NCBI GenBank assembly: GCA_049642725.1
Contig: JBARPC010000027.1
Span: 1,010-65,009, forward strand
From: Minisyncoccales bacterium
Lineage (GTDB): Bacteria > Patescibacteriota > Minisyncoccia > Minisyncoccales > JAGMDC01
Direction: 5' to 3'
DNA: 64,000 bases
Shown here: positions 31,201-31,906 of the stretch, in pieces
How positions within the stretch are numbered: position 1 is the first letter of the stretch
Layout of the letters: every line of letters starts with the position of its first letter
The notes under the pieces: generated by a model
What the model was told of the DNA's origin: nothing
What the model saw: only the letters and a program-made list of their open reading frames with translations
The model's database searches: none
Made by a program: the position numbers and the translations under genes

Positions 31201-31906
31201 TTTGCCTCGGGTAGAAGAAATTTTTGAATGCAGGATTCCGTCAGGAAAAGCAATAGTTTCTTCAGTAGATGGGATGATAGAAACTATTAAAGATGGAGCG
31301 ATAAAAGTAAAAAGTAATCCGCCAGCTGGCGGAGAAAAAGAAAAAACAAAAAAAAAGGAGATTATTGAATACCAAATTCCTGAAAAAAGAGCATGCTGGG
31401 TAAATGTTGGGGAAGAAATTAAAAAAGGACAGCAGCTTTGCGAAGGGAACTTAGATTTAAAAGAATTATTTAAATTGGTTGGAGCAGAAGAAACCAAACG
31501 TTATATTGTAAAAGAAATTCAAAATATTTATGCTTCTCAAGGAGGAGTTATCCATGATAAACATATTGAAGTAATTGTCCGCCAGATGTTTTCCAGGGTA
31601 AAAATTAAGGATCCAGGAGACAGTTTTTTGTTTAAGGGAGAAATTTTAGAGCAGACAAAGATAAATGAAGAAAATGCCCGTCTTAAAAAAGAAGGCAAGA
31701 AACTAATTAAAACAGAACAAACCCTGTTAGGAATTTCAAAGGTGTCTTTAACAACAGATAGTTTTTTATCTGCCGCTTCTTTCCAGGAAACATCGCGGAT
31801 TTTGATTAAGGCGTCTTTAGAAGGGAAAGAAGATAAATTAAAGGGTTTGAAAGAAAATGTCATTATCGGCAAACTCATTCCCGCCGGAACCGGCTTTAAA
31901 AAATAA
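28298..31906 (+). CDS. rpoC: DNA-directed RNA polymerase subunit beta'
   Basis: Zn-finger [20 protein letters not shown], catalytic [12 protein letters not shown], and trigger-loop and clamp blocks. Confidence 0.98.
   Translation: [1202 protein letters not shown]
28764..28798 (+). repeat. Tandem heptamer array (AAAAGTT x5, one AAAAGTG variant) inside rpoC
   Basis: Read directly. Encodes [12 protein letters not shown]. Confidence 0.9.

Follow-up and report, generated by a model that had tools for sequence, protein, structure and literature searches.

An exact 16-nt hairpin repeat in frame in rpoC and recA of a Minisyncoccales genome, dispersed through CPR bacteria and beyond

The described systems closest to the repeat considered here, a 16-nt palindrome (TCCGCCAGCTGGCGGA) read in frame in both rpoC and recA on a 64,000-nt stretch of DNA from a Minisyncoccales bacterium (contig JBARPC010000027.1; the whole stretch is called the window below), are the Rickettsia palindromic elements (RPEs) and the mobile GC clusters of mitochondria, and the repeat works like both. 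RPEs, which Ogata et al. are said to have described in 2000, are reportedly about 100-150 bp long and Rickettsia-specific. As with RPEs, a palindrome from a small AT-rich genome lies in frame in essential protein genes (rpoC, recA, secA, dnaE, prfB, rplF and dnaK, taking all genomes together) as well as in RNA genes (23S rRNA and RNase P RNA), is tolerated at surface or variable positions, and encodes no enzyme. The unit differs from the RPE length and consensus, however, being 16 nt, or up to about 25 nt within one genome with unrelated flanks beyond; it forms a perfect GC-rich hairpin, occurs in many classes of the Candidate Phyla Radiation (CPR) and in other phyla, and bears no sequence relationship to RPEs. 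Mitochondrial GC clusters, double-hairpin elements and ‘byp’ elements of fungi and algae are organellar, usually 30-60 nt long and lineage-specific. The likeness to the GC clusters is that of short GC-rich palindromes which invade AT-rich genomes, enter protein and rRNA genes and nest inside palindromes. Whereas byps are skipped by the ribosome, the present repeat leaves three frames open, with a preference for the one that reads PPAGG. It is interpreted here, with a probability of roughly one half, as a dispersed, non-autonomous 16-nt hairpin repeat that spreads by copy-and-paste, with host replication or repair as the agent leaned to.

The other comparisons are with bacterial repeats and sequence signals. 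For repetitive extragenic palindromic (REP) sequences and REPtrons, GTAG and CGTC superfamilies have been defined (PMC3733652). Like REPs and bacterial interspersed mosaic elements, the repeat is a short GC-rich hairpin with many copies per genome, and some of its intergenic copies are followed by TAG, which yields GTAG. REPs are, however, extragenic, species-specific, imperfect, tagged by GTAG or CGTC, and flank the gene of a REP-associated tyrosine transposase (RAYT). Here about half of the copies lie in long open reading frames (ORFs), TA follows GGAG in only 11 of 124 copies with no other flank position strongly conserved, and RAYT-like ORFs of the Y1 transposase type are present at 5 of 240 loci, none adjacent to the element in the 8-kb pieces searched. 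The fixed target-site duplication of miniature inverted-repeat transposable elements (MITEs) is likewise lacking: secA and rplF show only a gain of 12 nt, and elsewhere variable repeats of 3-11 nt are found. HIP1 is 8 nt long, belongs to one phylum and is tied to cognate methyltransferases. A preprint gives this cyanobacterial palindrome as GCGATCGC (bioRxiv 10.64898/2026.06.24.733823). Like HIP1, the repeat is an exact palindrome that is conserved as DNA and over-represented both inside and outside coding sequence, but HIP1 is hundreds of times denser (it reaches about 1 per kb or above within one phylum, against about 1 per 30-50 kb across several phyla for the repeat, counted in the window and fetched loci), and the repeat is 16 nt long, sparse and subject to hairpin-type covariation. 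Uptake sequences (USS, DUS) and Chi are non-palindromic and family-specific, uptake sequences occurring at about 1 per kb and Chi being orientation-dependent. The repeat shares with them the dominance of perfect copies and the use of tolerant frames and regions, and its arm, GCTGGCGG, reads as one base off E. coli Chi. In sum, the repeat lacks tested defining features of each known kind, and is unusual in its 16-nt size, its exact identity across deep lineages, the recurrent in-frame PPAGG in essential genes and the replacement of hairpin tips. Literature searches on the sequence, on PPAGG and on palindromic insertions in CPR/Patescibacteria returned nothing relevant, in keeping with the statement of a first-pass annotation, made from the DNA letters of the window, that it knew of no CPR equivalent; the repeat is apparently undescribed so far.

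The features of the window on which the argument turns are as follows.

31316..31340, + strand: repeat copy 1; 16-nt palindrome 31318-31333, read in the frame of rpoC, with NPPAGGEK as β' residues about 1007-1014.
34238..34262, + strand: repeat copy 2; the 16-nt palindrome is at 34240-34255, in frame as recA codons 8-15, and NPPAGGEK lies in the N-terminal tail.
61400..61455, + strand: longer third family member, with a 28-nt perfect palindrome, GTTCCGCCATTTCGCGAAATGGCGGAAC, at 61413-61440.
28298..31906, + strand: host gene rpoC (RNA polymerase β'), with Pfam RNA_pol_Rpb1 domains 1-5 and alignment to solved β' chains.
34217..35224, + strand: host gene recA (Pfam RecA, E = 2e-129, residues 19-277 matched).

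The first-pass annotation had pointed to an identical 25-mer encoding NPPAGGEK in both genes, and AATCCGCCAGCTGGCGGAGAAAAAG indeed occurs twice on the + strand, in frame each time, with an FtsK gene (Pfam) between rpoC and recA. It had described a 14-bp palindromic core, CCGCCAGCTGGCGG; the palindrome is perfect as claimed, although its full length is 16 nt, and the claim that it is GC-rich for an AT-rich genome is borne out by 75% GC against 33.7% for the window. With up to two mismatches allowed, the 14-mer is found in the window at the rpoC and recA sites only. Shuffled sequences lead to an expectation of 0.04 copies, and two copies were reached in 0 of 100 shuffles. Perfect palindromes that span 16 nt or more and have a GC content of 50% or above over their central 16 nt occur three times in the window, against 0.16 expected. 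The count of two copies has to be amended to three. The third family member, at 61413-61440, shares the arms TCCGCCA/TGGCGGA with the other copies, encloses 10 nt of other sequence at its centre, and is surrounded by an outer stem whose internal loops are of the GAA type. It lies between a tRNA-Ser(tga) gene and a GIY-YIG ORF, folds at -32 kcal/mol (z = -4.9), and agrees in architecture with the extended hairpins of other genomes. The antisense ORFs at 31195..31497 and 34180..34455, reported to read SPPAGG, do encode FSPPAGGL and FSPPAGGF, and are probably spurious ORFs that overlap real genes.

Both host positions had been called poorly conserved, and comparison with orthologues supports this: each is prone to insertion and deletion, and the segment is lineage-specific. 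C-terminal homologues of RpoC were drawn from a collection of 5.8 billion proteins and the nearest 120, which are 55-70% identical and include several named Parcubacteria or Patescibacteria, were compared; the names assign the window to a CPR bacterium, and PPAGG is present in 0 of these 120. The insert lies within a K/S-rich stretch that varies by 0-70 residues among relatives, and in an alignment to Thermus thermophilus β', gaps open precisely at NPPA and KEII. This places it downstream of the trigger loop (at Tth 1223-1377, E. coli 1131-1262), in what is presumably the jaw region. Among the 150 best RecA cluster representatives PPAGG is again absent (0/150), and homology begins at query residue 13-21, so that the element sits in a variable, K/E-rich N-terminal tail. 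An exact match to this RecA is absent from the public assemblies searched. Judged from these alignments, the segment in rpoC and recA is not conserved gene sequence. Two further observations concern the surroundings of these genes. A/T-rich inverted repeats of 62 nt, 79% complementary (28230-28291 and 35690-35751), flank the rpoC-ftsK-recA block and may be merely low-complexity promoter or terminator DNA, and directly after the recA stop codon a long hairpin (35229-35297; 17-bp stem formed by CCCCCACCACTTTTGAA and TTCAAAAGTGGTGGGGG, loop about 35 nt long) could represent either a terminator or a small RNA.

Filled and empty forms of the same site can be compared in rplF and secA. At rplF, the DNA of locus L159, AATCCGCCAGCTGGCGGAGAAAAAA, is equal to the window 25-mer at 24 of 25 positions. 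Its product is the only protein with the segment among 120 L6 proteins, and its nearest relatives (82% identical) are 4 residues shorter, with a clean 12-nt gap in the DNA alignment. The secA survey was a protein-level search, independent of DNA, that covered 120 homologues, about 110 of which have the canonical loop RL-x-x-G-E. NPPAGG takes its place in L089, L011, P0394, P0398 and P0401, NPPVGG in P0395, and NPPDGG in P0396. Six filled sequences (L089, L011, P0394, P0395, P0396 and P0398) have the insert AAT CCG CCA GNT GGC GGA in identical codons, differing only in the loop base where DNA was read, while synonymous sites next to it vary freely (for example, AGA TTA, AGG CTC or CGC CTT). The DNA of the repeat thus stays the same where flanking synonymous sites have diverged. 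Ordinary conserved sequence, the first-pass annotation had argued, would be recognizable as the same peptide encoded by divergent, non-palindromic DNA; secA carriers were found always to use the same palindromic DNA, as read in eight sequences with differing synonymous sites on either side, and the peptide is therefore not of that kind.

Occupancy is patchy among close relatives. The three sequences closest to L089 are empty (TTA AAA GAA GGA...), with identities outside the loop of 89% (P0391), 85% (P0392) and 81% (P0393), and the filled SecA sequences, mutually 62-75% identical, are scattered over the neighbour-joining tree, so that six or more separate lineages have the insert at one codon and in one orientation. 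A long gene-conversion tract at the secA insert was considered and was not seen, as L089 is nearest to empty P0391 on either side of the insert and along the whole fragment; the 18/18 upstream identity of L089 and L011 is weakly significant by estimate. The simplest reading of secA would be repeated gain at one codon, or else repeated precise loss. In secA and rplF alike, the 16-mer occupies the position of 4 nt in the empty relatives, so that a filled site is 12 nt longer and shows no duplication.

A motif that occurred nowhere else would have spoken against the first-pass proposal; it recurs on a massive scale. The exact 19-mer AATCCGCCAGCTGGCGGAG occurs at at least 120 loci in species-representative contigs (one genome per species), where about 4 would be expected by chance (own arithmetic for 596 Gb and two strands; fewer in AT-rich DNA), and the flanks of these loci are wholly unrelated. 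Among the matches listed, the record titles of 76 of 120 (about 63%) carry Patescibacteria/CPR names from many classes, including Saccharibacteria, Paceibacteria-type groups, Microgenomates-type groups, WWE3 and Berkelbacteria. Another 13 of the 120 listed are Bacteroidota, among them the isolates Maribellus sediminis, Maribacter sp. and Algoriphagus sp., and a few are Cloacimonadota, Elusimicrobia and others. Taxon labels of the type ‘MAG TPA_asm: uncultured ...’ (MAG, metagenome-assembled genome) were rejected as evidence of host range: L116, labelled ‘uncultured Gammaproteobacteria’, has flanks 84-91% identical to those of the Roizmanbacteria locus L066 and is a Roizmanbacteria relative. 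Because such labels are unreliable, spread beyond CPR rests on the Bacteroidota isolates and on large contigs; the element is not confined to CPR genomes. Within 855 kb of fetched loci there are 17 further core copies, of which 16 are flanked by T...A, and the 16-mer is therefore the conserved unit. An unbiased scan of metagenomes for this 16-mer recovered at least 122 copies, mostly on contigs of 33-48% GC, and orthologous copies stay perfect while their flanks are 75-85% identical. The viral contigs of IMG/VR hold one match to the 19-mer and 55 to the 16-mer, the latter mostly on contigs of at least 55% GC; these numbers are near the chance level, and a phage origin was rejected. Dispersal, unrelated flanks and patchy occupancy support the earlier proposal of a mobile palindromic element, the ‘selfish’ character of which is inferred.

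The copies occupy tolerant places: in proteins, loops and tails that vary, and elsewhere the tips of hairpins already present. Of the copies in ORFs, 58 of 81 (19-mer loci listed) and 28 of 49 (low-GC metagenome contigs) are in the PPAGG frame, and the alternative frames SASWR and (I/L)RQLA(E/D) are likewise open. The three open frames and the preference for PPAGG suggest that copies may be read through. Host proteins, as judged from ORF peptides, are SecA, DnaE, RF2, ribosomal protein L6, the C-terminal tail of DnaK, DnaJ and RecG, and it is on such reading that the host genes secA, dnaE, prfB, rplF and dnaK were assigned. In 23S rRNA (L017), the 16-mer takes the place of a hairpin tip between the conserved UAA and GGAG, and in RNase P RNA (L032; RF00010, 117 bits) it lies 27-45 nt into the molecule. 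Three other loci considered as rRNA (L007, L012 and L028) were dismissed for want of Rfam support, and L017 alone is 23S rRNA. Many intergenic copies cap longer hairpins. Complementarity of the flanks is about 5-fold over permuted controls, and since its registers vary, a single rigid structure of the form stem-GAA-hairpin-GWA-stem was rejected. In L105, a bare palindrome, CCTGCCTGCCGGCAGGCAGG, is the same as the outer stem that surrounds the element in L078. It looks as if the repeat is inserted at, or replaces, the tips of pre-existing hairpins rather than being part of one fixed structure. Relative to flanking genes, intergenic copies show no orientation preference (11 co-directional, 18 opposite), and some copies, by reading of their flanks, lie 13-23 nt upstream of start codons. 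Rfam searches found only tRNAs in the window and, at E up to 1, nothing over the element in 8 element-bearing loci.

When folded, the 16-nt repeat has a stem of 6 bp and a loop of 4 nt. AA frequently stands to its left and G(AA) to its right, and the hairpin-type pattern of the family can be written TCCGCCNNNNGGCGGA. The rpoC and recA copies both fold at -11 kcal/mol as RNA (z = -4.1 for rpoC) and at -6.5 kcal/mol as DNA. Counted over all loci, perfect 16-mers number 141; a single mismatch is seen in 6 copies, and two mismatches are seen in 11. Most variants differ in the central four bases (AGCC/GGCT, GGTT, GACT, TGTT), and others alter both arms jointly (TCCGTC...GACGGA, TTCGCC...GGCGAA, CCCGCC...GGCGGG); by reading, uncompensated stem changes are confined to 3 of the copies with one or two mismatches. 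As the variants alter either the loop or the two arms in concert, arm complementarity is retained, and the behaviour of the repeat is that of a hairpin with 6 bp. The stem TCCGTC...GACGGA is a local variant that outnumbers the other forms at the Maribellus locus L080. In the same isolate, Maribellus sediminis, L080 1800-3200 is non-coding and dense with diverse small hairpins and short tandem repeats, and includes variant family members of the form TCCGTC-NGCT-GACGGA.

Copies within one genome have longer common flanks than copies from different genomes: 9 or more additional flank bases are common to 8 of 53 pairs drawn from one genome, whereas the figure for pairs from different genomes is 1.06%. 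In the window pair there are 9 such bases, AA and GAAAAAG, which mark a within-genome subfamily; an A-rich tail is mildly enriched across the whole family. On this pattern, the rpoC/recA pair was probably copied within this genome. Junctions are less uniform. Direct repeats of 3-11 nt directly flank 17 of the 122 unbiased metagenome copies, where about 2-3 are expected, and because secA and rplF show no duplication, junction types are mixed.

ORFs from the 240 loci were clustered all-against-all, and no ORF family was found, in the 8-kb pieces, that tracks the element or recurs as its neighbour. LAGLIDADG-like genes are present at 8 of the 240 loci and small GIY-YIG proteins at 3, not adjacent to the element, with one more GIY-YIG gene in the window beside the long member. 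At L034 3815-4580, from a Shapirobacteria MAG, a RAYT-like Y1 gene is flanked on both sides by another hairpin, CACATCCGATGTG, an arrangement that is REPtron-like and unrelated to the 16-nt element. A split-arm search for TCCGCCA...TGGCGGA up to 3 kb apart returned only the 28-nt variant and chance pairs. The GIY-YIG ORF of the window (61511..61747, 78 aa) belongs to a layout of its own, in which a tRNA-Ser(tga), GC-rich hairpins, the ORF and a second tRNA-Ser(tga) follow each other within 61312-61841 and TCGCCTCGCCGAAGT is present after each of the two tRNA genes. The same layout is seen in L105 (with tRNA-Leu) and L086. This region of the window looks like a GIY-YIG cassette that has duplicated its tRNA target.

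According to the copy-and-paste interpretation, new copies would arise without any coding capacity of the element. Within this genome, either one copy or a shared master would have served as template for the unit of about 24-25 nt now present in the loop of the β' jaw region and in the N-terminal tail of RecA. The copying itself would fall to host replication or repair, through template switching or short-patch conversion at hairpins or hairpin tips aided by A-rich microhomology; this agent is preferred since the searches turned up neither an associated enzyme nor a fixed target duplication. The arms would be kept perfect by intrastrand template switching or by selection, and the insert would be retained in the mRNA and translated as a flexible surface segment. 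Several findings weigh against this interpretation. Flank signatures are heterogeneous (no duplication at secA and rplF, direct repeats at 17 of 122 copies, inverted flanks at roughly a quarter), and a single mechanism is therefore not demonstrated. An empty allele was not available for the rpoC and recA sites of this genome, the nearest RpoC relative being only 70% identical, and no mobilising enzyme, donor or master copy was identified in the 8-kb pieces around the element. Furthermore, the presence of the exact 16-mer in distant phyla and its conservation at codon level are unexpected for a purely neutral host-mediated process and suggest sequence-specific recognition or function. A tentative possibility is that a conserved cross-phylum system recognises the 16-mer sequence-specifically, either insertion or homing machinery that hits the same codons of essential genes, as at secA, or a DNA signal (for instance a bidirectional Chi-like or protein-binding hairpin) spread by molecular drive.

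Of the explanations that differ from host-mediated copying, insertion of the 16-mer at preferred targets by a dedicated trans-acting enzyme, be it a HUH/RAYT-type transposase or a LAGLIDADG, GIY-YIG or HNH homing-type nuclease, in the manner of MITEs and REPs, would account well for the reuse of one secA codon in one orientation by at least six lineages, for the exact sequence kept across phyla and for the excess of flanking direct repeats. RAYT-like Y1, LAGLIDADG-like and GIY-YIG genes do occur in these genomes, and the long member of the window abuts a GIY-YIG ORF. Such an enzyme is, however, rather doubtful, as no gene family lies consistently near the copies, the RAYT-like gene of L034 is flanked by a different hairpin, a target duplication of fixed length is lacking (secA and rplF have no duplication at all), the copies do not generally carry a GTAG or CGTC tag, and viral contigs are not enriched for either the 19-mer or the 16-mer. 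The constancy of the secA codons beside diverged synonymous sites, the ratio of 141 perfect copies to 6 with one mismatch, the perfection of orthologous copies in diverged flanks and the occurrence of the same 16-mer in different phyla could also reflect a DNA signal that is of use to the host and is maintained by selection or molecular drive, such as a site for a dimeric protein, a two-way Chi-like signal or an uptake-type sequence. Each arm (31325-31332 and 34247-34254) reads GCTGGCGG on both strands, matching E. coli Chi, GCTGGTGG, at 7 of 8 positions; the palindrome would present this octamer in both directions, in what appears to be a resemblance only. A signal of this kind is unlikely in view of the sporadic occupancy (0/120 RpoC, 0/150 RecA, 1/120 L6, patchy in secA), a density far under that of uptake sequences, the variant stem at the Maribellus locus and the absence of any positional pattern among the copies seen, and compensatory arm changes with a freely changing loop suit a hairpin better than base-specific readout.

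The same compensatory changes, the stable stem-loop in the rpoC transcript, the helix-tip positions in 23S rRNA and RNase P RNA, and the copies a short distance upstream of start codons would be in accord with a functional RNA hairpin that acts in the transcript on mRNA or ncRNA stability, on processing, or on pausing of the ribosome or polymerase. This is quite improbable, given that no Rfam family was matched, that copies take up arbitrary, non-homologous positions in unrelated ORFs, and that occupancy is patchy in relatives; intergenic copies lack an orientation preference, a test weakened by the symmetry of the hairpin. Nor are the window copies intrinsic terminators, which end genes with a U-run, because both are inside ORFs and are followed by A-runs. 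A chance match, the ordinary conservation of coding sequence, or an adapter or other artefact of sequencing or assembly is hardly credible and is effectively refuted. The flanks are A-rich, and base composition could explain some of the 25-nt identity that extends past the 16-mer, but the window expectation is 0.04, the hundreds of copies were contributed by many projects, independent of one another and on many platforms, with cultured isolates included, copies are biased to lie in frame, inheritance is seen at orthologous sites with diverged flanks, and the RpoC and RecA orthologues are without the segment.

The streamlined genomes of CPR bacteria would carry a very small invasive hairpin in core genes (rpoC, recA, secA, dnaE, prfB, rplF and dnaK) and in RNA genes, which raises the question of how a 16-nt sequence spreads and stays perfect across deep lineages. 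PPAGG inserts disturb the alignments and phylogenies of CPR marker genes and create spurious antisense ORFs, and they could mark recent exchange of DNA between lineages. If cross-phylum recognition were true, no smaller mobile element or signal that spans phyla and lies within core genes would be known, and a dedicated recognition system, if one exists, might offer a new sequence-specific DNA tool.

Other repeats in the window stand apart from this family. A different 30-nt perfect palindrome, GACACCGAGTTTCTATAGAAACTCGGTGTC (12655-12684), is in frame in recG (10953..13100, - strand), where its translation, TPSFYRNSVS, is part of the RecG wedge domain; its folding energy is -22.5 kcal/mol (z = -5.9). 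The palindrome is absent from all fetched loci and may be a second kind of in-frame palindromic insert. An identical 25-mer, AATGGAGGTTGAACCTCCTAAAATT, in two intergenic spacers directly upstream of ORFs (7755-7779 and 56165-56189) includes the small hairpin GGAGG-TTGAA-CCTCC, and may be a further repeat family or a common ribosome-binding-site or terminator module. A low-GC island (27-28%) at 13231-15363, with a Tsp45I/DpnII-like restriction endonuclease ORF (14428..15342) and an unannotated ORF of 378 aa, is bounded by a 39-nt inverted repeat (13231-13269 and 15325-15363) and may be an inserted restriction-modification cassette. Lastly, a 258-nt direct repeat of 78% identity (6372-6629 and 7477-7734), which pairs ORF 6300..6623 with the 3' end of ORF 6637..7728, is a partial gene duplication.

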